Source of the DNA: Candidatus Falkowbacteria bacterium | Lineage (GTDB): Bacteria > Patescibacteriota > Patescibacteriia > CAIXNZ01 | Direction of reading: 5' to 3' | NCBI GenBank assembly: GCA_963774955.1 | Contig: CAVZGV010000004.1 | Span: 383,779 to 447,778 of the forward strand | DNA length: 64,000 nt | Shown: positions 1,116-59,715 of the stretch, piece by piece | How the letters are laid out: every line of letters begins with the position of its first letter | How positions within the stretch are numbered: position 1 is the stretch's first letter | The notes under the pieces: generated by a model | What the model was told of the DNA's origin: nothing | Databases searched by the model: none | Seen by the model: the letters and a program-made list of their open reading frames with translations, nothing else | Program-made: the position numbers and the translations under genes

Positions 1116-4100
1116 ATGAGAACTTCAAAAAACAAATTTAAAATATATCTGGCTGTAGTCTCTCTGGCTGCTATGCTTATAAGTACGGCAGGCGCGTCTG
1201 CTGCCACCAGGATCGGCAGCAATATAAACTCTGCCGGTGATCTGACTGTTGACGGTGCTTTGAAATTTACTTCAGGCGCTGCTAACAATTATGTTTTAGC
1301 CAGTGATGCCAGCGGTAATGCCGCCTGGATTTCAGTGGCCACTCTTTTAGATTCTTCTCATGCCAATGTGACTACTAATGATCTGGATGAAGGCACTCTT
1401 AATTTATATTATGATTCGGCAGATGTTGAGACCAGAATTGATAATCGTAGTGGTATTGTCGGTGGTTTTGCTCCGCTTGATGCAGGGTTAAAGGTTCCAA
1501 GTTCATATTTGCCAAATTTAGTAATTACCAATGTCTATGCAGTTGCGGATATTGCTGCCAGGGACTTATTGACCGTTGAAGAAGGCGATGTGGCTGTGGT
1601 TGCTGATGCCGGTTTGTTAGAAAGCCGTTCTTATATTTATGACGGCACAGGCTGGCTGGAATTGAAAGCTCCGGTTGATTTATATTTAGCCGCCGCAAAT
1701 GATCTTTCAGATTTAGGCAATTTCGCTACTGCCAGAACTAATTTGGGTATTGGGACTACAGATATCCCCGAGTTTAACGGTTTGACTTTAAATAGTCTGA
1801 CAGCTGATTCATTTATTTATTCCGGCACGGGTGGATTACTTACCTCAACTGCTGCTCCTTTAGACGGGGAGTTGCTCATTGGTGTTGCTGGCTCGTCTCC
1901 GGTAGTGGCAACTTTAACAGGTACCACAAATCAGGTAGATGTAACCAATGGCGCAGGCTCCATAACTTTATCAACTCCACAAGATATAGATACTAGTGCA
2001 AGTCCACAATTCACAGGCTTAACTTTAAGCGGTACAACACTTTCAATTAACGGAATCGCTTATGCTTGGCCAGCTGCTGATGGCGCCTTGGGGGATGTTT
2101 TAACTACTGACGGTGCCGGCGCTTTAACCTGGACAACTGTGGCCGGTGCAGGTGAAACAAACACAGCTTCAAATGTTAATGTTGGCGGTCAGAGTTTATT
2201 TAAACAAAAAACAGGGGTAGACTTGGAATTCAGGGGCATTAATGCCGCTTCCAATAAGATAGGTATTGCGCTAGATGACCCGAATAATGAAGTAACAATT
2301 GATGTTAATGAAGCTAATTTAACTTTAGATAATCTCGGCGGAACTTTGAGTGAAACTCACGGTGGTACCAATCTGACAACTTATACTAGCGGCGATATTT
2401 TATATGCTTCGGCCGCAGATACTTTAAGTGCCTTACCAATAGGTGGTACTGATGGTTGGGTTTTAACAGTTAATACTGGTGCTCCGGTTTGGCAGGCTTT
2501 ACCTGGGGCAGGAGCAGAAACAGATCCGGTCTTTACTGGAAGCTTTACAGCCGCCGGTGATTTGTTAGTCGGTACAGGAGCAGGAACATATACTGCCGTT
2601 ACAGACGGTACTTCCGGCCAATTTTTAACTACTAACGGTTCAGGCGCTTTGAGCTGGGCAGCAGAAACAGATCCGGTGTATACAGCGTGGGATAAATCAA
2701 CCGGCATATCAATAACCGAATCACAAATATCAGATTTGCAGGCGTATCTGACATCAGAAACAGATTCTGTCTTTACTGGAAGTTTTACAGCCGCCGGTGA
2801 TTTGTTAGTCGGTACAGGAGCAGGAACATATACTGCCGTTACAGACGGTACTTCCGGCCAATTTTTAACTACTAACGGTTCAGGCGCTTTGAGCTGGGCA
2901 GCAGAAACAGATCCGGTGTATACAGCGTGGGATAAATCAACCGGCATATCAATAACCGAATCACAAATATCAGATTTGCAGGCGTATCTGACATCAGAAA
3001 CAGATTCTGTCTTTACTGGAAGTTTTACAGCCGCCGGTGATTTGTTAGTCGGTACAGGAGCAGGAACATATACTGCCGTTACAGACGGTACTTCCGGCCA
3101 ATTTTTAACTACTAACGGTTCAGGCGCTTTGAGCTGGGCAGCAGAAACAGATCCGGTGTATACAGCGTGGGATAAATCAACCGGCATATCAATAACCGAA
3201 TCACAAATATCAGATTTGCAGGCGTATCTGACATCAGAAACAGATTCTGTCTTTACTGGAAGTTTTACAGCCGCCGGTGATTTGTTAGTCGGTACAGGAG
3301 CAGGAACATATACTGCCGTTACAGACGGTACTTCCGGCCAATTTTTAACTACTAACGGTTCAGGCGCTTTGAGCTGGGCAGCAGAAACAGATCCGGTGTA
3401 TACAGCGTGGGATAAATCAACCGGCATATCAATAACCGAATCACAAATATCAGATTTGCAGGCGTATCTGACATCAGAAACAGATTCTGTCTTTACTGGA
3501 AGCTTTACAGCCGCCGGTGATTTGTTAGTCGGTACAGGAGCAGGAACATATACTGCCGTTACAGACGGTACTTCCGGCCAATTTTTAACTACTAACGGTT
3601 CAGGCGCTTTGAGCTGGGCAGCAGAAACAGATCCGGTGTATACAGCGTGGGATAAATCAACCGGCATATCAATAACCGAATCACAAATATCAGATTTGCA
3701 GGCGTATCTGACATCAGAAACAGATTCTGTCTTTACTGGAAGTTTTACAGCCGCCGGTGATTTGTTAGTCGGTACAGGAGCAGGAACATATACTGCCGTT
3801 ACAGACGGTACTTCCGGCCAATTTTTAACTACTAACGGTTCAGGCGCTTTGAGCTGGGCAGCAGAAACAGATCCGGTGTATACAGTGTGGGACAAATCAA
3901 CCGGCATATCAATAACCGAATCACAAATATCAGATTTGCAGACATATGCTCTAAGTGGAGCAAATGGAGACATTACCAGTTTAACCGGGTTGACTACTGC
4001 TCTTGGTCCGACTTATGGCGGTACTGGTTTAGCTACTTATGCTTTAGGCGATATTTTATATGCTTCAGCAGCTAATACTTTATCAGCCTTATCTTCAGGC

Positions 4101-7100
4101 GGAGCTGGTACATATTTGAAATCAGATGGTGCTGGCGGCTTAACTTGGGCTACTCCGGCTGGTAGCGGTACTATTACTGCTGTTGGTGATATAACCACAG
4201 GAGCCGCGTTTACACCTACAGCAGGCGCAGATGGCAATAATTTGTATTTTGAAGGCACAACCGGAAACGGTTTTGAAGTTAATCTGACAGCAGCAGATCC
4301 GGGATCAGATGTGATAGTGACAATCCCTGCAACAACCGGCACATTATTATTGAATACAAATAATTTATCTGACGTATCAAATACAGGAACAGCCAGGACA
4401 AATTTAGGTTTAGGCACGGGAGACAGCCCGCAATTTACAGGATTAACACTGACAAGCGATGAAACATTAAATGCACAGTCAGATTTACGGTTGGCAGATG
4501 CTGATTCATCAAATTGGGCGGCATTCCAGGCGCCAACGACAATTTCTACAAATTATACCTTGACTTTGCCGGCAGATGACGGGACAGCAGGACAATGTTT
4601 GACAACAAGCGACGGCACAGGGACATTAGCCTGGGCAGCTTGCGGAGCTGGAAGTGGAGCAGATACAGCATTATCAAATCTGGCATCAGTAGCCATTAAT
4701 ACATCATTATTACCGGGTACAACAGAATCAATAGCTTTAGGATCAGATTCATTTAACTGGTTGAATTTATACTTAGGGAATGGCGGAGTAGTTTTTGAAG
4801 GCGCAACAGGGGGAGTGGATACAAATGAGACTACCTTGGTAGTGACAGACCCGACAGCAGACCGGACAATAACCTTACCTAATGCAACAGGCACAGTATT
4901 ATTAAATACAAATAATTTATCGGATGTATCAAATACAGGAACGGCGAGAACAAGTTTAGGGTTGGGCACGGGAGATAGCCCGCAATTTACCGGATTAACA
5001 TTAACAAGCGATGAGACATTAAATGCACAGTCAGATTTACGGTTTGCAGATGCTGATTCATCAAATTGGGCAGCTTTCCAGGCGCCAACGACAATTGCAT
5101 CAAATTATACCTTGACCATGCCGGCAGATGACGGCACAGCGCTCCAGTTTTTACAGACTGACGGAAGCGGCGTTTTATCCTGGGCAACCCCAACAGTTAC
5201 ATCTGTAGCCTTTAGTGGCATAACTAATGGCATAAATACAACAGCCACTATGACGGTCGGAAGCGGAGCAACTTTAGCACCGTCAGGAACTGGTATAATA
5301 ACTGCTACCAGATATACAGGGTCAGGTTCTTCAACTAATGAAGTTGACTTAGGAACAGCAGAGGTAGCCGGTACTTTAACCGTAGTTAAGGGCGGTACGG
5401 GAATAACTGATTTTACTGGGGCGACTGGTAGTTTACCTTATTTTAATTCTGAAACTACTATGGATTTTACAAACGCCGGTACTAATAATAAATTCCTTAA
5501 AGGCGTCACAGGAGGAGCTCCAGCTTTTGCTTCAGTCGATTTGAGCAGTCCGGATGTGACAAGCACTTTGCCTATTGTTAGAGGTGGTACTGCTGCTACT
5601 ACGATAGGATCTGCTGGCAGAGTTGTATATAGTACAGGTACGGCTTATGGCACTTCCAGTGCCACAACCGAATTGGGACATATACTTATTTCAGGTACAA
5701 GTGGCACTGGTGCTCCGTCCTGGTTGGCTCAGGGTGCATCGGGGCAATTACTAGTATCAGGTGGGACAAATGTAGCACCGACTTGGACTTCCTTAGGTAG
5801 TGTACCAACTACGTCAAATAATGATGCTACTTTGCGTTCCAATGGTTCAGCTTGGGTTGAAAATACCTCCGTATTGATAAGTTCAACTGGAGGGATATCA
5901 TCCGCGAACGGTTCAGCCCTAACCATAAATTCTGGAACTACGGGTGATTTGGGGATTGGAACGGATGCAAGTATTGAAAATATAAATATAGGTACTGGTG
6001 GTGCCACTAAAACTATTATTTTTGGCAACAGTACTGGAGCAACCTCAGTTGCTATAAATACTGGTACCGGAGCATTAAATCTGGGAACGAATGCAATCGC
6101 TCATATCACAACATTGGGTTCTATAACAGGTGCCGCTTCAACCATAGTTCAATCAGGAACCGGTGACCTTAAAATTGAGACCCAGGGTACTGGCGGTTTA
6201 AAAATTGGTACTAATGCAGTAGCACAGAATATTACAATCGGCAACGGAACCGGAGCAACATCGCTTGTCTTAGAGGCTGGTACAGGCAATATCGATATTG
6301 GTAGCAATGATATTGCCAGGAGTATAAATATAGGTCAAACCTCTACAGCAGCTCAGGCTATTACCATAGGTAATGGTAATACAGGCACAGCAGTGGATAT
6401 AAAAGTCGGTACAGGAGCCTTAAATTTAGGGTCAAATGCTACAGTTCATACTACCACTTTAGGTTCAAATACTAGCACCTCAACCACTACAGTTCAATCA
6501 GGAACCGGCGGACTTAATTTAACTTCTGCAAGTACAGGTATAATAACCCTAGATTCGGGAACCACTGGTAGGATTGATATAGGAACTAATACTGGTGGCA
6601 AGACTATTAATATCGGGACAGGAGCAGCAGCTAATACCCTTAATATTGGTAATAATACTAGCGGCACAGGTACGTATATCAAAGCTGGAAACACCGGCAT
6701 TAATATATCAACTGGCGGGGCAGGGAATATAGACATATTGACTGACTCAACTGGTACTATGCACATTGATACAGGTACATCAGGTACGATAAATTTTGGA
6801 ACTGGCGATAGCGGAAAAACTATTAATATTGGTACCGGTAATGTCGCCAATACAATTAATATTGGTAATTCATCCTATGCTACTGCAATTCAGTTATATG
6901 GTACTGGCGGTGTAAAAATCGGCTCATCGAGTAGCACTGCGATTTTAAATCATTATTCTGGTACAGCTTCTCTGGATTTTGGCGCCACTGCTGCTAATAC
7001 CTGTGATGCCGCCACCATAACAGTGACTGGCGCTGCTGACGGAGATACTGTTACTCTTGGTGTACCTGCTGCTTTAGCCGGAAGCGATGCTAGTCAGAAT

Positions 7101-7217
7101 TTTTGGGGTTACGTAAGTGCTACAAATACTGTTACTGTAAAAAGATGTAATGTAACTGGTTCACCTTTAAGTGATCCTGCAGCTGCTACAGTACGCGCAG
7201 ATGTTTGGAAACACTAG
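1116..7217 (+). CDS. Giant secreted fibrous repeat protein (2033 aa), tail-fibre/adhesin-like
   Basis: Single uninterrupted ORF with an N-terminal signal peptide (cleavage likely after ASA). G/T/S/A-rich throughout. Recurrent motif G..GQ.LTT.GSGALSWA, six identical 80-aa tandem repeats, and a second diverged duplication (~aa 1070-1160 vs 1260-1345). The C-terminal region has 14-15-aa beta-helix-like repeats (TINIGTG..ANT.NIGN). Confidence 0.85.
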   Translation: MRTSKNKFKIYLAVVSLAAMLISTAGASAATRIGSNINSAGDLTVDGALKFTSGAANNYVLASDASGNAAWISVATLLDSSHANVTTNDLDEGTLNLYYDSADVETRIDNRSGIVGGFAPLDAGLKVPSSYLPNLVITNVYAVADIAARDLLTVEEGDVAVVADAGLLESRSYIYDGTGWLELKAPVDLYLAAANDLSDLGNFATARTNLGIGTTDIPEFNGLTLNSLTADSFIYSGTGGLLTSTAAPLDGELLIGVAGSSPVVATLTGTTNQVDVTNGAGSITLSTPQDIDTSASPQFTGLTLSGTTLSINGIAYAWPAADGALGDVLTTDGAGALTWTTVAGAGETNTASNVNVGGQSLFKQKTGVDLEFRGINAASNKIGIALDDPNNEVTIDVNEANLTLDNLGGTLSETHGGTNLTTYTSGDILYASAADTLSALPIGGTDGWVLTVNTGAPVWQALPGAGAETDPVFTGSFTAAGDLLVGTGAGTYTAVTDGTSGQFLTTNGSGALSWAAETDPVYTAWDKSTGISITESQISDLQAYLTSETDSVFTGSFTAAGDLLVGTGAGTYTAVTDGTSGQFLTTNGSGALSWAAETDPVYTAWDKSTGISITESQISDLQAYLTSETDSVFTGSFTAAGDLLVGTGAGTYTAVTDGTSGQFLTTNGSGALSWAAETDPVYTAWDKSTGISITESQISDLQAYLTSETDSVFTGSFTAAGDLLVGTGAGTYTAVTDGTSGQFLTTNGSGALSWAAETDPVYTAWDKSTGISITESQISDLQAYLTSETDSVFTGSFTAAGDLLVGTGAGTYTAVTDGTSGQFLTTNGSGALSWAAETDPVYTAWDKSTGISITESQISDLQAYLTSETDSVFTGSFTAAGDLLVGTGAGTYTAVTDGTSGQFLTTNGSGALSWAAETDPVYTVWDKSTGISITESQISDLQTYALSGANGDITSLTGLTTALGPTYGGTGLATYALGDILYASAANTLSALSSGGAGTYLKSDGAGGLTWATPAGSGTITAVGDITTGAAFTPTAGADGNNLYFEGTTGNGFEVNLTAADPGSDVIVTIPATTGTLLLNTNNLSDVSNTGTARTNLGLGTGDSPQFTGLTLTSDETLNAQSDLRLADADSSNWAAFQAPTTISTNYTLTLPADDGTAGQCLTTSDGTGTLAWAACGAGSGADTALSNLASVAINTSLLPGTTESIALGSDSFNWLNLYLGNGGVVFEGATGGVDTNETTLVVTDPTADRTITLPNATGTVLLNTNNLSDVSNTGTARTSLGLGTGDSPQFTGLTLTSDETLNAQSDLRFADADSSNWAAFQAPTTIASNYTLTMPADDGTALQFLQTDGSGVLSWATPTVTSVAFSGITNGINTTATMTVGSGATLAPSGTGIITATRYTGSGSSTNEVDLGTAEVAGTLTVVKGGTGITDFTGATGSLPYFNSETTMDFTNAGTNNKFLKGVTGGAPAFASVDLSSPDVTSTLPIVRGGTAATTIGSAGRVVYSTGTAYGTSSATTELGHILISGTSGTGAPSWLAQGASGQLLVSGGTNVAPTWTSLGSVPTTSNNDATLRSNGSAWVENTSVLISSTGGISSANGSALTINSGTTGDLGIGTDASIENINIGTGGATKTIIFGNSTGATSVAINTGTGALNLGTNAIAHITTLGSITGAASTIVQSGTGDLKIETQGTGGLKIGTNAVAQNITIGNGTGATSLVLEAGTGNIDIGSNDIARSINIGQTSTAAQAITIGNGNTGTAVDIKVGTGALNLGSNATVHTTTLGSNTSTSTTTVQSGTGGLNLTSASTGIITLDSGTTGRIDIGTNTGGKTINIGTGAAANTLNIGNNTSGTGTYIKAGNTGINISTGGAGNIDILTDSTGTMHIDTGTSGTINFGTGDSGKTINIGTGNVANTINIGNSSYATAIQLYGTGGVKIGSSSSTAILNHYSGTASLDFGATAANTCDAATITVTGAADGDTVTLGVPAALAGSDASQNFWGYVSATNTVTVKRCNVTGSPLSDPAAATVRADVWKH
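2515..3955 (+). repeat. 6 x 240-bp essentially identical tandem repeats inside the giant gene (each encodes 80 aa, ETDPVFTGSF...QAYLTS)
   Basis: Direct reading shows period 240, with 'gaaacagat(c/t)c(g/t)gtctttactgga' recurring at 2517, 2757, 2997, 3237, 3477 and 3717. Only synonymous or near-synonymous differences are seen in the first and last copies. Confidence 0.9.
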
Positions 7218-10524: not shown

Positions 10525-10599
10525 GGGGGCGTAGCTCAGTGAAAGAGCAGCGGGCAAACATCCCGCAGGTCGTGGGTTCAATTCCCACCGCCCCTACCA
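10525..10599 (+). tRNA. tRNA gene, isotype undetermined (anticodon loop reads CAAACAT, formally anticodon AAC with A33)
   Basis: By-eye cloverleaf: acceptor GGGGGCG/CGCCCCU, D-arm GCUC-AGUGAAA-GAGC, anticodon stem GCGGG/CCCGC, T-arm GUGGG-UUCAAUU-CCCAC, encoded ACCA. The D-loop lacks G18G19 and position 33 is A, both non-canonical. Confidence 0.55.
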
Positions 10600-10703: not shown

Positions 10704-10777
10704 CAGGGGATAGCTTAAGTAAAGCGCCAAAACTACCCTTTTGGAGACTGTTGGTTCAAATCCAGCTCCCCTGACCA
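10704..10777 (+). tRNA. tRNA gene, isotype undetermined (anticodon arm cannot form a 5-bp stem with a 7-nt loop)
   Basis: Acceptor CAGGGGA/UCCCCUG, U8A9, T-arm GUUGG-UUCAAAU-CCAGC, encoded ACCA. The anticodon region CCAAA-ACUACCCU-UUUGG gives an 8-nt loop (or a 6-bp stem with a 6-nt loop). The D-loop lacks GG. Confidence 0.5.
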
Positions 10778-29098: not shown

Positions 29099-29524
29099 AT
29101 GCCAACCATTAATCAATTAGTCAGAAAAAACAGGAAAGTAACCAAAAAGAAAACCAAAACTCCGGCTTTGGAAAGTGTTTATAATACTATTAGAAGGAAA
29201 AGCAAGTCTTTGTCTGGAGGTAACCCATTCAAGCGCGGTGTTTGCCTTAAAGTAACGACTATTACACCTAAAAAGCCGAACTCAGCCTTACGTAAAATCG
29301 CCAGGGTCAGATTATCTAACGGTATGGAAGTTACCGCGTATATTCCAGGCGAAGGTCATAATCTGCAGGAACACTCTATAGTCATGCTTCGGGGTGGTAG
29401 AGTCAAAGATTTGCCAGGTGTCCGCTATCACATTGTTCGCGGCCGTTATGACACCCAAGGTGTGGAAAATCGACGCAAAAGCCGTTCACTTTACGGTCAA
29501 AAACGACCTAAAGATAAAAAATAG
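29099..29524 (+). CDS. rpsL: 30S ribosomal protein S12
   Basis: [25 protein letters not shown]. Confidence 0.9.
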
Positions 29525-29649
29525 AACCACGAATAAATATAAGATTGTATAGGTTGTAATGTTTAAAATATCCTTGTAATCCGTGATTCAGAGCAACCTT
29601 ATATAACCTAATTTAATTTCATAAAAAATTATATAAAACTTATAATCAT

Positions 29650-30120
29650 ATGAGAGGTAAGCAAGCACCTAAAAGACATACACAACCTGATGCCAAGTTT
29701 AATAATGCGCAGATTGGTAAATTCATTAGCTACTTAATGCGCAGAGGTAAAAAATCTACTGCTCAAAATATTGTTTATGATTGTTTTGATAATATTTCGG
29801 AGAAAACCAAGCAGGATCCCTTGGAAGTTTTTGATGCTGCTATAAAAAATGTCGGCCCTTCTCTGGAAGTCAAAGGCCGTAGAATTGGTGGCGCCAACTA
29901 TCAGATTCCTTTCCCGGTAAAAACTGAAAGACGATACCAATTAGCTTGTCGTTGGGTTATTATTGCGGCGCAAAAAAGAAAAGGGCGATCTATGGCTGAT
30001 AAATTAGCCATGGAAATCGTTGATGCGGCCAATAGCCAGGGTGAAGCCTTTAAGAAAAAGGTTGATGCGCATAGAATGGCTGAAGCTAATCGTGCTTTTG
30101 CCCACTTTGCCCGATATTAA
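29650..30120 (+). CDS. rpsG: 30S ribosomal protein S7
   Basis: Canonical S7 sequence, 156 aa. Confidence 0.9.
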   Translation: MRGKQAPKRHTQPDAKFNNAQIGKFISYLMRRGKKSTAQNIVYDCFDNISEKTKQDPLEVFDAAIKNVGPSLEVKGRRIGGANYQIPFPVKTERRYQLACRWVIIAAQKRKGRSMADKLAMEIVDAANSQGEAFKKKVDAHRMAEANRAFAHFARY

Positions 30121-30183
30121 TTTTAAAATTCAATTTAATAAATTTTGGAATTTTTATTTTTACTTTTTAATTTATTTTGATTT

Positions 30184-32269
30184 ATGCCCCGTGAGTATAC
30201 ACTAGAAAAAACAAGAAATATCGGCATTATGGCCCATATTGACGCTGGTAAAACAACGGTTACCGAGCGTGTTTTATTTTATACCGGTAAAAAACATAAA
30301 ATTGGTGAAGTTCATGAAGGGGCTGCTGAAATGGATTGGATGGAACAGGAAAAAGAAAGAGGCATTACCATTACTGCCGCTGCTACTACTTGTTTTTGGA
30401 AAGATCACCGTATTAATATCATTGATACTCCCGGTCACGTTGATTTTACGGTAGAAGTCGAAAGGTCATTGCGCGTTTTAGACGGTGCAGTGGCGGTTTT
30501 TGACGGTTCTCAGGGTGTAGAACCTCAATCAGAAACAGTTTGGCATCAGGCAGCCAAATATGATGTTCCCAGGATTGCTTTTGTAAATAAAATGGATAAA
30601 ATGGGAGCAGATTTTTATATGACGTTTGGATTCAATTGCTGAACGTTTGTCAACTCATGCTGCGGCAGTGCAATTGCCTATCGGTGCTGAAGAAACTTTC
30701 TGTGGTCTGGTTGATTTATTAGATCGTCAAGGCTTATAAATTTGAAGGTGAATATGGCCAAAATGTTATAGAAATATCAATCCCGGAAGATATGAAAGAT
30801 AAGGTAGAAAAATACCGCAAAATTTTACTGGAAAAAGTTGCGGAAAATGATGAGGATATGATGAATAAATATTTAGCCGGACGAAGAATTGGATATTGAT
30901 CAGATTACGTCAGGTAATGCGTAAAGCTACAATATCTAATGATTTTCATCCGGTTTTGTGCGGTTCAGCTTTGAAAAATATCGGTGTACAACGAATGCTT
31001 GATGCGGTGGTATGCTTATTTACCATCACCGCTTGATGTACCTCCGATTATAGGTAAAAATCCTGATACAGGCAATGAGGAAAAAAGAGAAAGCTACTGA
31101 TGAAGCGCCTTTTGCCGCACTTGCCTTTAAATTAGCCACTGATCCTTTTGTCGGTAAATTAGTCTTTTTTCGTGTTTATTCGGGCAGTCTAAAAGCAGGT
31201 TCTTATGTTTTAAATACCAAGACAGGAAATAAAGAAAGAATTGGTCGTATTGTACGCTTGCATGCTAATTCCCGAGAAGATGTTGATGAGGTTTTTTCCG
31301 GAGAAATTGCAGCAGCTATTGGTTTGAAAAATACTGTAACGGGCAATACTTTGTGCGATGAAAAATACCCTGATAATTTTGGAAGAAATTATTTTTCCGG
31401 AACCGGTTATTTCCGTGGCGATTGAACCAAAAACCAAGGCTGACCAGGAAAAAATGGGCATGGCTATGCAGAAATTGGCCGAAGAAGATCCGACTTTTAA
31501 GATTCACACTGATGAGGAAACCTTACAGACTATTATTTCCGGTATGGGCGAATTACATTTGGATATTATTGTTGACCGTATGAAAAGAGAATTTAAAGTT
31601 GAAGCCAATGTCGGTGCGCCTCAGGTTGCTTATAAAGAAACCATCAAAGGTGGCGGCTGAAGGCGAAGGTAAATATATCAAACAGTCAGGTGGTCGTGGT
31701 CAATATGGTCATTGTTGGTTAAAAGTTGAACCGCGTGATCGAGGTGAAGGCTTTGAATTTGTTGATGAAATTAAAGGCGGCGTTATTCCCCGGGAATTTA
31801 TTCCTGCCGATTGAAAAAGGTGTTAAAGAATCTTTAACTAAAGGTATTTTGGCCGGTTATCCGGTTGTTGATATTAAAGGCTACTGTATATGACGGTTCT
31901 TATCATGACGTTGATTCTTCTGAAGTAGCTTTTAAAATTGCCGGTTCTATGGCTTTTTTTGAAGCCGCCAGAAAGGCTAAGCCAATTATCTTGGAACCGA
32001 TTATGAAGATTGAAGTAACTACCCCGGAGCAATTTATGGGTGATGTTATTGGTGATTTGAATTCCAAACGCGCTCAGATTTCTCAAATGACCGAGAAAGT
32101 TAAATTAAAGGTAATTGACGGTTTAGTTCCTCTTTCAGAAATGTTTGGTTATGCCACCTCTTTAAGGTCTTTGACTCAGGGACGTGCAAATTATGCCATG
32201 GAATTTGATCATTATCAGGAAGTTCCATCTAATGTTGCGCAAAAGATTATTGAAGGAAAAAAGAAATAA
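30184..32269 (+). pseudogene. fusA: Elongation factor G with at least 8 frameshifts between ~30620 and ~31870 (N-terminal G domain and C-terminal domains intact)
   Basis: ORF-track pieces 30184-30642, 31075-31425, 31358-31660, 31599-31814 and 31865-32269 are all EF-G in different frames. Manual translation of 30640-31075 gives further EF-G segments ([120 protein letters not shown]), each in a shifted frame. Confidence 0.85.
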
Positions 32270-32293
32270 TATATAATTATCATTTTATAAACA

Positions 32294-32325
32294 AAAACAC
32301 CCCGTATAAGGGGTGTTTTTGTTTA
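32294..32325 (+). terminator. Rho-independent terminator after fusA
   Basis: aaaaacacccc-gtataa-ggggtgtttttgttt. Confidence 0.6.
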
Positions 32326-32477
32326 TTGCCTTGGTTATTCCTAGGTCATAATTTTTGCAAGCGGGTATCAGAGGTGTTTAGTCAATATAATTGTGGTTTA
32401 ACATTCTCTTCTTTAATATTTTAACTAAAGTAATTATATTTGATTGTTAATAATAAGTGTATAACTCTGGGGACTAG

Positions 32478-32536
32478 TATGTAGATAACCATGTGTAAAA
32501 CTATGTGGGTAAATATGTGCAAAATTTGTCTATAAT
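32478..32536 (+). promoter_or_regulatory. Four phased 12-nt direct repeats (ATGTrnnTAAAy; weak DnaA-box-like TGTGGGTAA) abutting a TATAAT -10 element
   Basis: atgtagataacc / atgtgtaaaact / atgtgggtaaat / atgtgcaaaatt, then tgtctataat. Confidence 0.35.
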
Positions 32537-32844
32537 TAGCTAAAAATGGACTTGACGCTATTTGGGGTATAAGTTATTATAAGCATACGAACCCTACTTG
32601 ATTACGAGTTAAGTATCATTTTCTCAAATTTTTTGAGATGGGTACTTAGTTCAGTGTCTAAAGCGGGGTTTTTTTGTTGTCATAAAAAAATTGCAAGATA
32701 TATGGGATTTGAAAAGGAAACGCTACACTGTTTCCTTTTTATGTTGTCACCCGGGCTTAAAGGGAGGTAACTAAAGATGGTTAAAGGTTTTAAAGGATAT
32801 TGGAAGATCAAAGAAGCAACATTTAAAAAAGGAGGTGTTCTAAA

Positions 32845-33723
32845 ATGGAAGCGAAAAAGCTGGTGATGAATAATCAGATTCCTCGAGATTTTGATCTCTT
32901 GGATCCGGAAACTCGGCAACTGGCTTTAGCGATCGGCGGGCGCAAAGTTAATGGCACCAATTTTCATTTGGGTCATTTGGCCAAGAACTTAAAACGTTCT
33001 GAAGTCGCAGTCTGGGCAGCCAGACGAGTGATCCGTAGCGAGGCCATCGGTATCAACTGGGAACATCTTCTTGATGATATCGTTGAAACTTGTCTCAAGG
33101 AGTTCCACTATGAAACCTATCGTCATTTAAAGCGCATGCACGGGATTATGGCAGAAGAATTGAAGTACTTGCAACATCATCAGCCGGCGCAGATGGATGA
33201 TCGCGGCATCAAAGAGTTCCGAGAGATGGAGCATTTTCCTCTGGGTGAGGAAGAACAAGCTCAGATGAAATGGGCTTCTTCATTCCACGATATCTGTCGC
33301 ATGAGTTACAAGGTTTCTTACTGGAAGAAGAAAGGGAAATTTACTCCCTTGCAAAGAAAACAACTTGATTTTCATGCTCGGAACTTCTTTTTCCTGGGAC
33401 AATTGTTTAATGTTTACCAGGAAGTCATTGCCTTGTCAGTCTTGCATCACTATCCCAATAAAGGCTATCCTGACAACGGAATTATCGCTAAGTTAACGCC
33501 TTTTTTGGCGCAGCCTAAATTCCAGTACATGTTGAATTGGCTGGTTACCAACGACGTTTATACTGGTGCAACCGATGATCGAGGCTACCGAGATCAGCCA
33601 TACACCCATGAGCAGGCAATTGGCCAAACAATGCCTACTGAATTGGGTCCTGTTGGCATGGCTTGGGTACCGTTTATCGAAGCGATAAAACAACCAGGTG
33701 ACAAGGTGGTTTGCCCCGCTTAA
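32845..33723 (+). CDS. Hypothetical protein (292 aa), GC-richer, possible HD-type metal-dependent phosphohydrolase
   Basis: Consensus SD (aaaaaggaggtgttctaaaATG). H..H / HD / HH / D residues spaced as in HD-domain proteins (FHLGH, FHDICR, VLHHY, ATDD). GC about 47%. Inserted between fusA and tuf. Confidence 0.5.
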   Translation: MEAKKLVMNNQIPRDFDLLDPETRQLALAIGGRKVNGTNFHLGHLAKNLKRSEVAVWAARRVIRSEAIGINWEHLLDDIVETCLKEFHYETYRHLKRMHGIMAEELKYLQHHQPAQMDDRGIKEFREMEHFPLGEEEQAQMKWASSFHDICRMSYKVSYWKKKGKFTPLQRKQLDFHARNFFFLGQLFNVYQEVIALSVLHHYPNKGYPDNGIIAKLTPFLAQPKFQYMLNWLVTNDVYTGATDDRGYRDQPYTHEQAIGQTMPTELGPVGMAWVPFIEAIKQPGDKVVCPA

Positions 33724-33727
33724 CCAG

Positions 33728-33782
33728 TCAAGGGCCTCTCTTACTCGGACTTTAAGTCTGAGAGGAGAGGGCCCTTGACTTT
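33728..33782. terminator. Long perfect inverted repeat (bidirectional terminator-like)
   Basis: gtcaagggcctctc..ttactcggactttaagtctgagag..gagagggcccttgac. Confidence 0.5.
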
Positions 33783-33825
33783 CTTTTTAATTTAAGGTAA
33801 GTTATATATAGTTTTTTAAAAGATT

Positions 33826-33866
33826 TGCCCCGCAAAGTGGGGTCAGCCTTCGGCGGAAAACTTTTT
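33826..33866 (-). repeat. Third, more degenerate copy of the twin-hairpin element (no adjacent tRNA)
   Basis: Minus strand reads GTTTTCCGCCGAAGGCTGACCCCACTTTGCGGGGCAAATCT, the same architecture as the elements 3' of both tRNA-Pro genes. Confidence 0.4.
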
Positions 33867-33872
33867 TATTTT

Positions 33873-34196
33873 ATGAAGAATTTAAAAAGAATATTGGATC
33901 TGATTCGTAAAACAGGCGATAAATATATCTTCGAAGATGATAATGAGGGTATTTTTGTGGTCTTAGCTTTAGATGACTATGAAAATTATATTTTTAAGAA
34001 TAATCAGCTAAAGAATTTGTCTGAAGAGGAACTTTTAAATAAAATTAATAAGGATATCGCTATCTGGAAATCATCTCAAGAAGATAAAATTGTTGATCAG
34101 TCGTGGCAAGATTTGCCTGTTGAGGAAAATGAAAAAAAGCACTCGGTTGAAGATGAAGATCGTTATTATTTTGAGCCGGAAGAAGATGAAGATTAA
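33873..34196 (+). CDS. Hypothetical acidic protein (107 aa; MKNLKRILDL...EPEEDED)
   Basis: Start placed at the internal Met because the longer ORF from 33825 runs through the repeat element. Highly acidic C-terminus. Confidence 0.45.
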   Translation: MKNLKRILDLIRKTGDKYIFEDDNEGIFVVLALDDYENYIFKNNQLKNLSEEELLNKINKDIAIWKSSQEDKIVDQSWQDLPVEENEKKHSVEDEDRYYFEPEEDED

Positions 34197-34331
34197 AAAG
34201 ACTTGCCAAATGTTTAAATAGTGCTATAATTAGATATACATTTAAATAAATAAATAATTTTAATTAGGGAAGCGGCTGGATAAAACTCTGCCTCAATAAT
34301 GGTTAGAGGCCGACTCCAAGGAACTAAAAAA

Positions 34332-35522
34332 ATGGCAGCAGAAAAATTCGATCGATCAAAGCCCCATGTTAATGTTGGTACAATCGGCCATGTTGATCAT
34401 GGTAAAACCACTTTAACGGCGGCTATTTTAAATTATATCGGCGCTAAAGGCGGTAAAGCCCAGCAAAAAAGCGTTGATCAAATCGATGCAGCTCCTGAAG
34501 AAAAGGAACGCGGTATTACTATTGCTACTGCTCACGTGGAATATGAAACAGAAAAAAGACATTATGCTCACGTTGATTGCCCTGGTCATGCTGATTACAT
34601 CAAAAACATGATTACTGGCGCAGCTCAAATGGATGGCGCAATTTTGGTCGTGGCTGCAACTGACGGCCCTATGCCTCAGACTCGCGAACATATTTTATTA
34701 GCTTATCAGGTTGGCGTGCCTTCAATTGTTGTTTTCTTAAATAAATGTGATCAGGTTTCTGATCCAGAATTAATTAATTTGGTTGAGGAAGAAGTTAGAG
34801 ACCTTTTAAAGAAATATAAATATCCTGGAGACGAAATTCCGATTATCCGCGGTTCAGCCTTAAAGGCCTTGGAAGATCCTAAAGGTGAATCCGGCCAATG
34901 CATTCAACAACTTTTAGATGCCTTAGATAGTTATATTCCTGAACCAGTTAGACAAATTGATAAACCCTTCTTAATGCCAATAGAAGACGTGTTTTCAATT
35001 GAAGGTCGCGGCACAGTTGTGACCGGTAGAATTGAAAGAGGTATAATTAAAGTAACTGATGAAGTTGAAATAGTCGGCATTACGGCTACTCAAAAAACAG
35101 TAGTTACAGGGATTGAAATGTTTAATAAATCGTTAGACGAAGGTCGTGCTGGAGATAATGCCGGTATTTTATTGCGCGGTACTAAAAAAGAAGACGTGGA
35201 AAGAGGTCAGGTTATCGCTAAGCCAGGCTCTATTACTCCTCATACTGAATTTGAAGGTGAAACATATATTTTAACCAAAGAAGAAGGCGGTCGTCACAAA
35301 CCTTTTTTTAAAGGCTATAAACCCCAGTTTTATATTCGTACTACTGATGTAACTGGTGAAGTTGAAATTTTGGGCGGCGCAGAAATGGTTATGCCAGGCG
35401 ATACCATTCAATTAAAAGTTAAATTGATTGCTCCTGTTGCTTTGGAGGAAAAAATGAAATTTGCTATTAGAGAAGGCGGCAAAACCGTTGGTGCTGGCGT
35501 GATTACTAAGATTATTGCGTAA
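34332..35522 (+). CDS. tuf: Elongation factor Tu
   Basis: [44 protein letters not shown]. Confidence 0.95.
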
Positions 35523-57935: not shown

Positions 57936-59715
57936 ATGCTACGTACCAATACATGCGGAGAACTAACTAAAAAACAAGTCGGTAAAGAAGACTACCCTAT
58001 GCGGTTGGGTCAATTCCAGGCGCGATCATGGCGGCATTATTTTTATTGATTTGCGCGATCGTTATGGTTTAACCCAGATTAAATTTGATCCGAAAATTTC
58101 CCAGGAGGCCTGGAATGAGGCCGATAAGGTTCAGGCCAGAATGGGTTTTGAAAGTTAGCGGGGAAGTTTTAGGCCGGCCTAAGGATATGGTTAATAATAA
58201 TTTAGCGACCGGCGAGGTGGAAGTGGCGATATCGGAAATTGAAATTTTGTCTGAGGCTAAAACACCGCCATTTGAAATTGATCAGGATAAAATGGTCAAT
58301 GAGGATTTAAGCGCTTAAAATACCGATTTTTGGATTTGCGCCACCAGCGTTTGCAGAAAATCATGGCTGATCGCGATCAATTGATAACTTATGTGCGTGA
58401 ATATTTTCATAAAAAAGAATTTATTGAAATTCAGACCCCAATTTTGGCAAATTCTTCACCTGAAGGCGCCCGCGATTATTTGGTGCCTTCAAGAATTCAT
58501 CCGGGTAAATTTTATGCCTTACCCCAGGCACCACAGCAATTTAAACAGCTATTAATGGTCGCTGGTTTTGATCGTTACTTTCAGATTGCGCCTTGTTTTC
58601 GTGATGAAGATCCTCGCGCAGACCGTCATCCTGGTGAATTTTATCAGATTGATTTGGAAATGTCTTTTGTAGAGCAGGAAGATATCTGGCAAATGGTTGA
58701 GCCGTTGATGGTTGAGCTGACTGATAAATTTTCCGATAAAAAAATAATTACCAACCCTTTCCCAGAATAACCTACCAAGAAGCTTTGGAAAAATATGGTT
58801 CAGATAAGCCTGATTTGACGTTTTGATTTGGAAATTCAACCAATCACGTGAGTTGGTCAAAGATTGCGGTTTTGCGGTTTTTAGCGAGGCTATAAAAAAT
58901 AAAGGAGTAGTTCATGCTTTGAAAATTGACTAATGGCGGTAAATTTAGTCGTAAAGAAATTGATGAACTTAACTGAATTGGCTAAAAGCAAAGGCGCTAA
59001 AGGTTTAGCCTATATTATTGTCAAAGATAAAGAATTGCAATCACCGTTGATTAAATTTTTAGGTGATGATTTATCCCAGAAAATTGTTAAAGAAGTTAAA
59101 GCCAAAGCCGGTGATATTATATTTTTCGGAGCAGATAACTGGAAAACAGTTTGTTCAGCTTTGGGGGCGGTCAGAAATGAGTGCGGCAGTCGTTTAGGCC
59201 TCAAGGATCCGAAAAAAGCAGCCTGGCTGTGGGTAATTGATTTTCCCATGTATGATTATTCAGAACTGGAACACGGTCGGATTGATTTTTCGCACAATCC
59301 CTTTTCCATGCCACAGGGCGGTTTGAAAGCTTTGGAAGATAAAGATCCATTGGAAATTTTGGCGCATCAATATGATTTGGTCTGCAACGGCTTTGAAATT
59401 TCTTCAGGCGCCATTAGAAACCATCAGCCGGAAATTATGTATAAAGCTTTTGCCATCGCGGGTTATACCAAGGAAGAAGTTGATGCCAAATTTGGTCATA
59501 TGATTAAGGCCTTTGAATTTGGGGCGCCGCCTCATGGCGGTATTGCACCGGGTCTGGATCGTTTATTAATGGTACTCTGGGATTTACCAAGTATCCGGGA
59601 TATTTACGCCTTTCCGAAAAACGGATCAGCTCAGGATGCTATGTTGGGTGCGCCCAGCGAAGTTGAGATCAAGCAATTGAAGGAATTGCATATTAAATTG
59701 GATTTAGAGAAATAG
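57936..59715 (+). pseudogene. aspS: Aspartate--tRNA ligase with at least 4 frameshifts
   Basis: AspRS sequence runs continuously but switches frame near 58050, 58320, 58770 and 58925. The ORF-track pieces 58085-58318, 58330-58770 and 58933-59715 are all AspRS. Class II motifs FRDED and GGIAPGLDRL are present. Confidence 0.8.

Follow-up and report, generated by a model that had tools for sequence, protein, structure and literature searches.

Several sources of a changed reading frame within a bacterial gene have been described. Programmed +1 frameshifting of the prfB type employs one site per gene, which consists of CUU UGA and an upstream SD. In reduced endosymbionts, transcriptional slippage on poly(A) takes place at A tracts of 9 or more. 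Bacterial pseudogenes, in turn, carry indels that are biased towards deletions. Broken frames can also arise in the assembly itself: MAGs have been documented to contain local stretches of consensus that lack support (Chen et al. 2020, PMC7111523). Within the 64-kb stretch of DNA analysed here (the window), both fusA, coding for EF-G, and aspS, coding for aspartate-tRNA ligase (AspRS), are broken by dense runs of frameshifts. Our analysis indicates that these frameshifts very probably arose in the consensus, as a localised artefact of two segments of the MAG that seem to vary between strains, and do not belong to the DNA of the organism.

The fusA gene occupies positions 30184-32269 on the + strand (2086 nt), as judged from alignment, repaired translation and Pfam matches. 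In the ORF list and in a three-frame translation it falls into ~10 ORF pieces with alternating frames, and its ends are clean, with the first 152 and the last 134 amino acids being uninterrupted. A MAFFT alignment of the window gene with three intact homologues of 2076 nt revealed exactly ten insertions of one base each and not a single deletion in the interval from 30624 to 31879, located approximately at 30624, 30728, 30882, 30907, 31012, 31089, 31371, 31649, 31807 and 31879. The preliminary description had reported at least eight frameshifts between 30620 and 31870, flanked by clean stretches of ~150 amino acids at the start and ~135 amino acids at the end, and the observation is confirmed, with the count raised to ten. 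All frame changes are +1, and a seeming -1 step in the ORF list resolves into two +1 steps that lie 25 nt apart.

Written as a complete codon followed by the extra base, the first insertion reads ACG+T (Thr, ACG/ACT) at 30624-30625 and moves the frame by +1. It is followed on the same strand by CGT+C (Arg, CGT/CGC) at 30727-30728, GGA+C (Gly, GGA/GGC) at 30881-30882, ATT+A (Ile, ATT/ATA) at 30906-30907, GTA+T (Val, GTA/GTT) at 31012-31013, AGA+G (Arg, AGA/AGG) at 31088-31089 and CCT+G (Pro, CCT/CCG) at 31371-31372, all taken from the alignment. The second, third and fifth of these are incompatible with the extension of a homopolymer. The eighth insertion can be read as AAA+G (Lys) or as GGT+G (Gly), its placement being ambiguous within the 5 nt from 31648 to 31652 (+). 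The last two are GCC+G (Ala, GCC/GCG) at 31808-31809 and AAA+G (Lys, AAA/AAG) at 31878-31879, both on the + strand and both required to be absent from an independent contig (see below). Upon removal of the ten extra bases, fusA measures 2076 nt and encodes 691 amino acids without stops. The repaired EF-G matches the Pfam domains GTP_EFTU, D2, EFG_III, EFG_IV and EFG_C from end to end and shares 90-94% identity with intact EF-Gs of 691 amino acids from Patescibacteria. Its five-domain architecture (~690 amino acids) together with its syntenic position identifies the repaired gene as an EF-G orthologue.

The aspS gene at 57936-59715 (+), likewise delimited by alignment, repaired translation and Pfam matches, measures 1780 nt instead of 1773 nt. 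The alignment shows eight inserted bases in seven insertion events and one deleted base between 57987 and 58969, and what had been put forward as the same pattern with at least four shifts thus amounts to nine. The first insertion, GAA+G or AAA+G, is ambiguous in its placement within 57986-57990, and the second is GTT+C (Val) at 58131-58132. A two-base insertion, AG, precedes the Arg codon CGC at 58310-58311, where a frame change at 58309/58312 was also detected by tblastn. The corresponding Arg codon is AGA in the syntenic locus L004 and CGT in L005, and the insertion is consistent with AGG and CGC alleles that may have been interleaved as AG-CG-C. The sole deletion, which leaves ATT-AC?-CAA short of one base, lies at 58751-58752. 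It is followed by TTG+A (Leu) at 58817-58818, ACG+T (Thr) at 58848-58849, GAC+T (Asp) at 58930-58931 and, at 58968-58971, either C+TTA (Leu, CTA/TTA) or CTT+A; all of these sites were placed by alignment on the + strand. The repaired gene comprises 1773 nt and encodes 590 amino acids, again without stops, that are 88.8% identical to the homologue P0126. Pfam recovers a full tRNA_anti-codon domain (PF01336), tRNA-synt_2 (PF00152) over positions 1-307 of 308 and GAD (PF02938). With an OB anticodon-binding domain, a class II catalytic core and a GAD insertion in ~590 amino acids, repaired aspS encodes an aspartate-tRNA ligase. The best matches of both EF-G and AspRS are, without exception, MAG proteins of Patescibacteria (Parcubacteria group).

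The surroundings of fusA are intact. The gene order runs from rpsL, rpsG and fusA over two small conserved ORFs to tuf and then to the ribosomal protein genes of the S10/spc/alpha operons, and the window from 29099 to 35519 is collinear with the loci L001, L002, L003 and L006. All relatives compared possess an intact single fusA at the same syntenic position with an uninterrupted frame, and the frames of the aspS relatives are uninterrupted as well. Single-frame tblastn matches with 83-94% identity to homologues cover rpsL (29099-29524, +) and rpsG (29650-30120, +), and tuf (34320-35519, +) is intact with 97.5% amino acid identity to its counterpart in L006. The flanking genes had been described as intact, which holds in that rpsL, rpsG, tuf and the ribosomal protein genes are each read in a single frame; tuf, however, does not directly follow fusA, as two ORFs lie between them. 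The frames were further checked by tblastn, in which every ORF from the syntenic loci L001-L006 served as a query for the window. Homologues cover 31,430 nt of the window, 27,581 nt of which lie outside fusA and aspS, and no frame change was found in these 27,581 nt. All 19 small indels, i.e., 18 extra bases and one missing base, fall within 2,239 nt of the 31,430 nt (P ~1e-20 under uniform positions), which supports the earlier remark that random sequencing error would not cluster in this way. The indel density is alike in both genes, with 10 in 1256 nt of fusA and 9 in 983 nt of aspS. A second copy of fusA or aspS was not found within the 64-kb window.

The two ORFs between fusA and tuf, at 32845-33723 (292 amino acids) and 33825-34196 (123 amino acids), are both encoded on the + strand. 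The larger one has no Pfam match, and the smaller one gave a weak, sub-threshold match to a Phd/YefM antitoxin (22 bits). Homologues of both are located correspondingly in L006 and L002, and L003 has a homologue of the larger ORF there too; we thus regard the pair as a conserved insertion into the str operon that is specific to this lineage. The tuf ORF at 34299-35522 (+) encodes 407 amino acids from its first ATG, while homologues have 395-396 amino acids and align from 34320, and the start of tuf is probably internal to this ORF. An apparent loss of rplC in L001 and L006 was dismissed, since the ORF is intact in both loci and merely absent from the gene table. Elsewhere in the window, its largest ORF extends over 1116-7217 (+) and encodes 2033 amino acids, with a G+C content of 0.40-0.455 that exceeds that of most of the window. 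A tRNA gene at 10704-10777 (+; Rfam RF00005, 50 bits) begins 105 nt after a tRNA-Val(AAC) at 10525-10599. ARAGORN was unable to name it and placed an anticodon '(ac)' in a loop of 6 nt; if the anticodon stem is taken as 5 bp, the loop would read ACUACCC and correspond to Val(UAC) with an unusual C33 and C37. This gene could be a real oddity or a further one-base consensus error.

We then asked whether the broken fusA carries traces of coding constraint. When its shifted segment is read in the repaired frame, codon positions 1+2 are 0.92-0.95 identical to those of the homologues, and for position 3 the identity is 0.60-0.63. Intact homologue pairs gave 0.92-0.955 and 0.54-0.61, respectively, by the same measure. 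Since the contrast between positions 1+2 and position 3 equals that of the intact pairs, fusA shows undiminished purifying selection and no decay. The indel spectrum of fusA and aspS together comprises 18 inserted bases in 17 events versus one deleted base, and every event is 1-2 nt in length. Of the marks expected for a pseudogene, neither relaxed selection nor deletions that equal or outnumber insertions and vary in length could be found. Homopolymer sequencing error was also rejected as the cause, as the insertions are not enriched in homopolymers: 8 of the 16 single insertions could not have arisen by extension of a homopolymer, and about half would be expected at random. Furthermore, the insertion sites share no sequence motif that would point to a methylation-motif-linked error.

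Inspected by eye, the 16 single insertions can each be read as a codon XYZ plus one extra base Z', with XYZ and XYZ' encoding the same amino acid. That every site forms such a pair at the third position initially seemed to have a chance probability of ~1e-8, a claim that had to be downgraded, as 40-75% of simulated random insertions pass as well. With null rates taken from these simulations, 14 of 16 insertions passed a strict synonymous-pair test (null 0.39-0.42; P = 1.5e-4) and all 16 passed a lenient one (null 0.74-0.75; P = 9e-3). Random insertions pass often because the placement of an insertion is ambiguous, and the signature is thus only moderately significant. At this moderate strength, the errors carry a signature of variant merging, in which two synonymous alleles stand in tandem.

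Independent evidence came from the Logan assemblies of the sequencing runs ERR15459710 and ERR12035938, which encode proteins identical to S7 and to the 292-aa, 144-aa and 103-aa ORFs of the window. We found no papers that name these runs. In ERR15459710, one contig ends 117 nt into fusA (~30300) and another starts at ~31589. At aspS, a contig of the same run stops at ~57743, and contigs of both runs restart at ~59011; the ERR12035938 contig upstream of this break has no aspS gene call and ends near the gene start, at a point that is not fixed. Breaks in both segments are thus documented for ERR15459710, and for ERR12035938 in aspS only. Contig ends at ~30300/31589 and ~57743/59011, next to neighbours that assemble cleanly, suggest a local hypervariability of fusA and aspS, and the breaks of the k-mer graph at the damaged segments are consistent with branching from local strain variation. 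Three of the fusA indels (31649-31879) lie outside the contig gap of ERR15459710. Its contig contains an open fusA 3' end of 226 codons, with the same 576-nt spacing to an identical next gene as in the window, whose own sequence has only 143 open codons at this end. The insertions at 31808/9 and 31878/9 must therefore be absent from the ERR15459710 contig. This read-through of two sites was deduced from gene-call coordinates and not base by base, and the test leaves the site at 31649 undecided.

The exact repaired EF-G (691 amino acids), its last 226 amino acids and the window fragments were not found among 15 billion proteins, a collection that does contain an exact copy of the window S7, encoded on an NCBI/ENA contig of 455,071 bp. 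Patterns allowing two insertions to be present or absent gave no matches in the genome-contig and metagenome-contig collections, and no relatives could be retrieved from these two collections via the lineage-specific 292-aa neighbour. An odd top match to the 226-aa C-terminus, P0247, was set aside, since its source is a contig of an unrelated hybrid assembly in which part of EF-G is duplicated internally. At positions 6001-7077 of locus L007 (ENA ERZ13690513, opera_contig_185877), an EF-G fragment of 358 amino acids has its domains IV-V tandemly duplicated and adjoins Mob and integrase genes; in this other organism, the duplication looks like a further assembly artefact or the junction of a mobile element.

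With these data at hand, we weighed whether the frameshifts could be genuine. Were fusA and aspS true pseudogenes, functional copies would have to reside elsewhere in the genome or the host would have to supply the function. Neither protein can indeed be encoded in one frame from the sequence as given, CPR bacteria are reduced episymbionts, and our paralogue check covers the 64-kb window, within which no second copy of either gene exists. Yet constraint is as strong as in intact orthologue pairs, while 19 neutral indels should be accompanied by many more substitutions and some nonsense codons. Insertions prevail by 18:1, whereas bacterial pseudogenes are biased the other way, towards deletions, and the damage is confined to sharp segments of ~1 kb with pristine 5' and 3' ends. 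Moreover, all relatives keep one intact fusA at the syntenic position, and, as judged from gene-call coordinates, at least two of the shifts are missing from an assembly built independently for this population. We therefore consider inactivation of the two genes highly improbable. Of the three options raised in the preliminary description, mixed-strain consensus and localised assembly damage stand, although they are not fully separable, whereas the pseudogene is very hard to reconcile with the constraint, the 18:1 insertions and the Logan contig. Even harder to uphold is the idea that the extra bases are real and that full-length EF-G and AspRS arise by recoding at ~19 heterogeneous sites, be it through programmed +1 frameshifting or hopping, quadruplet (four-base) decoding, transcriptional slippage or excision of the extra bases from the mRNA by RNA editing. 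This would account for all events but one being +1, each after a complete sense codon, and for the rescue that real indels in two essential genes would need. However, the 17 insertion sites have no common motif, and the codon before the extra base is of at least 12 different kinds. There is no in-frame stop and no known slippery or hungry-codon context, the first stop following 5 codons past fusA site 1, and no conserved slippery or stall motif that is kept in relatives. Likewise, no A/T tract of ~9 nt or more, as slippage would need, is present at the frameshifts: runs at the sites do not exceed 3 nt, with a single A6 tract nearby that is found upstream of site 6 at a distance of 3 nt. Ten serial frameshifts at an efficiency of 50% each would leave ~0.1% full-length EF-G. 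The events also include a deletion and a +2 shift, highly expressed neighbouring genes are devoid of frameshifts, the frames of relatives are uninterrupted, and by gene-call coordinates at least two of the sites are absent from the independent assembly. To our knowledge, efficient recoding at ~19 heterogeneous sites is not known in bacteria, and we give this reading next to no credence.

A further explanation differs from the consensus artefact that we favor only in the origin of the errors, and the two are not mutually exclusive. Here, short-read breaks in strain-variable segments would have been closed with a low-coverage, unpolished long-read consensus, so that most of the errors would be random single-base insertions. 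Several observations are in line with such gap filling: the independent k-mer assemblies break at these very segments, error density is similar in both, insertions predominate with about half of them being homopolymer-compatible, as for random insertions, and a contig of 455 kb for a CPR MAG suggests long reads. On the other hand, 14 of 16 insertions pass the strict synonymous-pair test, compared to ~40% for random insertions (P = 1.5e-4), and substitutions at codon positions 1+2 are not in excess within the fusA segment. The three fusA errors at 31649-31879 are also located outside the Logan gap, though another assembler may break elsewhere. On balance, we regard gap filling as a possible but rather unlikely origin of the errors.

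The insertion bias, the intact constraint, the clustering, the repairable full-length proteins and the independent contigs together are the reason for our assignment of the frameshifts to a localised consensus artefact. We propose that the sampled population would be locally polymorphic in two stretches of ~1-1.3 kb inside fusA and aspS, and that a consensus or polishing step may mishandle the variants that co-occur there. Most likely, the two alleles of a synonymous SNP would be placed in separate alignment columns and both be written to the consensus, which would turn XYZ into XYZZ'. Each such event would add one base and shift the frame by +1. Judging from the pattern of the insertions, we infer the retention of both alleles with moderate confidence, and a consensus or polishing step is its presumed source. 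Besides the absence of the repaired proteins from the protein collection and the moderate significance of the allele signature, two observations speak against the consensus artefact: the single deletion is not predicted by a pure both-alleles model, and only fusA and aspS were hit, while equally conserved neighbours such as tuf were spared.

As an artefact, the frameshifts have no biological importance and are a matter of data quality. Automatic annotation would call EF-G and AspRS, two essential single-copy markers, pseudogenes or fragments. The consequences would be lower completeness estimates, loss of the genes from phylogenomic marker sets and possibly unfounded reports that a CPR symbiont has lost them. 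The combination of runs of +1 insertions, synonymous-allele pairs and short segments in which independent assemblies fragment provides a cheap diagnostic that does not require reads and could help to detect and mend comparable damage in other MAGs.

How does this locus compare to the described systems? With prfB-type frameshifting and the slippage of endosymbionts it shares a +1 frame change within an essential gene. These systems rely on one defined site with a motif, whereas fusA and aspS contain 10 and 9 heterogeneous sites, respectively, that have none. Closer is the resemblance to the MAG errors of Chen et al. 2020 (PMC7111523), in which short consensus stretches lack single-read support, reads of related populations pile up and gene calls are broken, and which are mended by read-level curation. 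Those errors, however, arose with short-read assemblers, and runs of +1 insertions at synonymous sites are not described among them. Finally, single-base indels that split genes in long contigs are also a feature of long-read assemblies (proovframe, 10.1101/2021.08.23.457338; Sereika et al. 2022, PMC9262707). There, they are spread genome-wide and concentrated in homopolymers, whereas here the indels show no homopolymer enrichment and are confined to two segments of ~1 kb.
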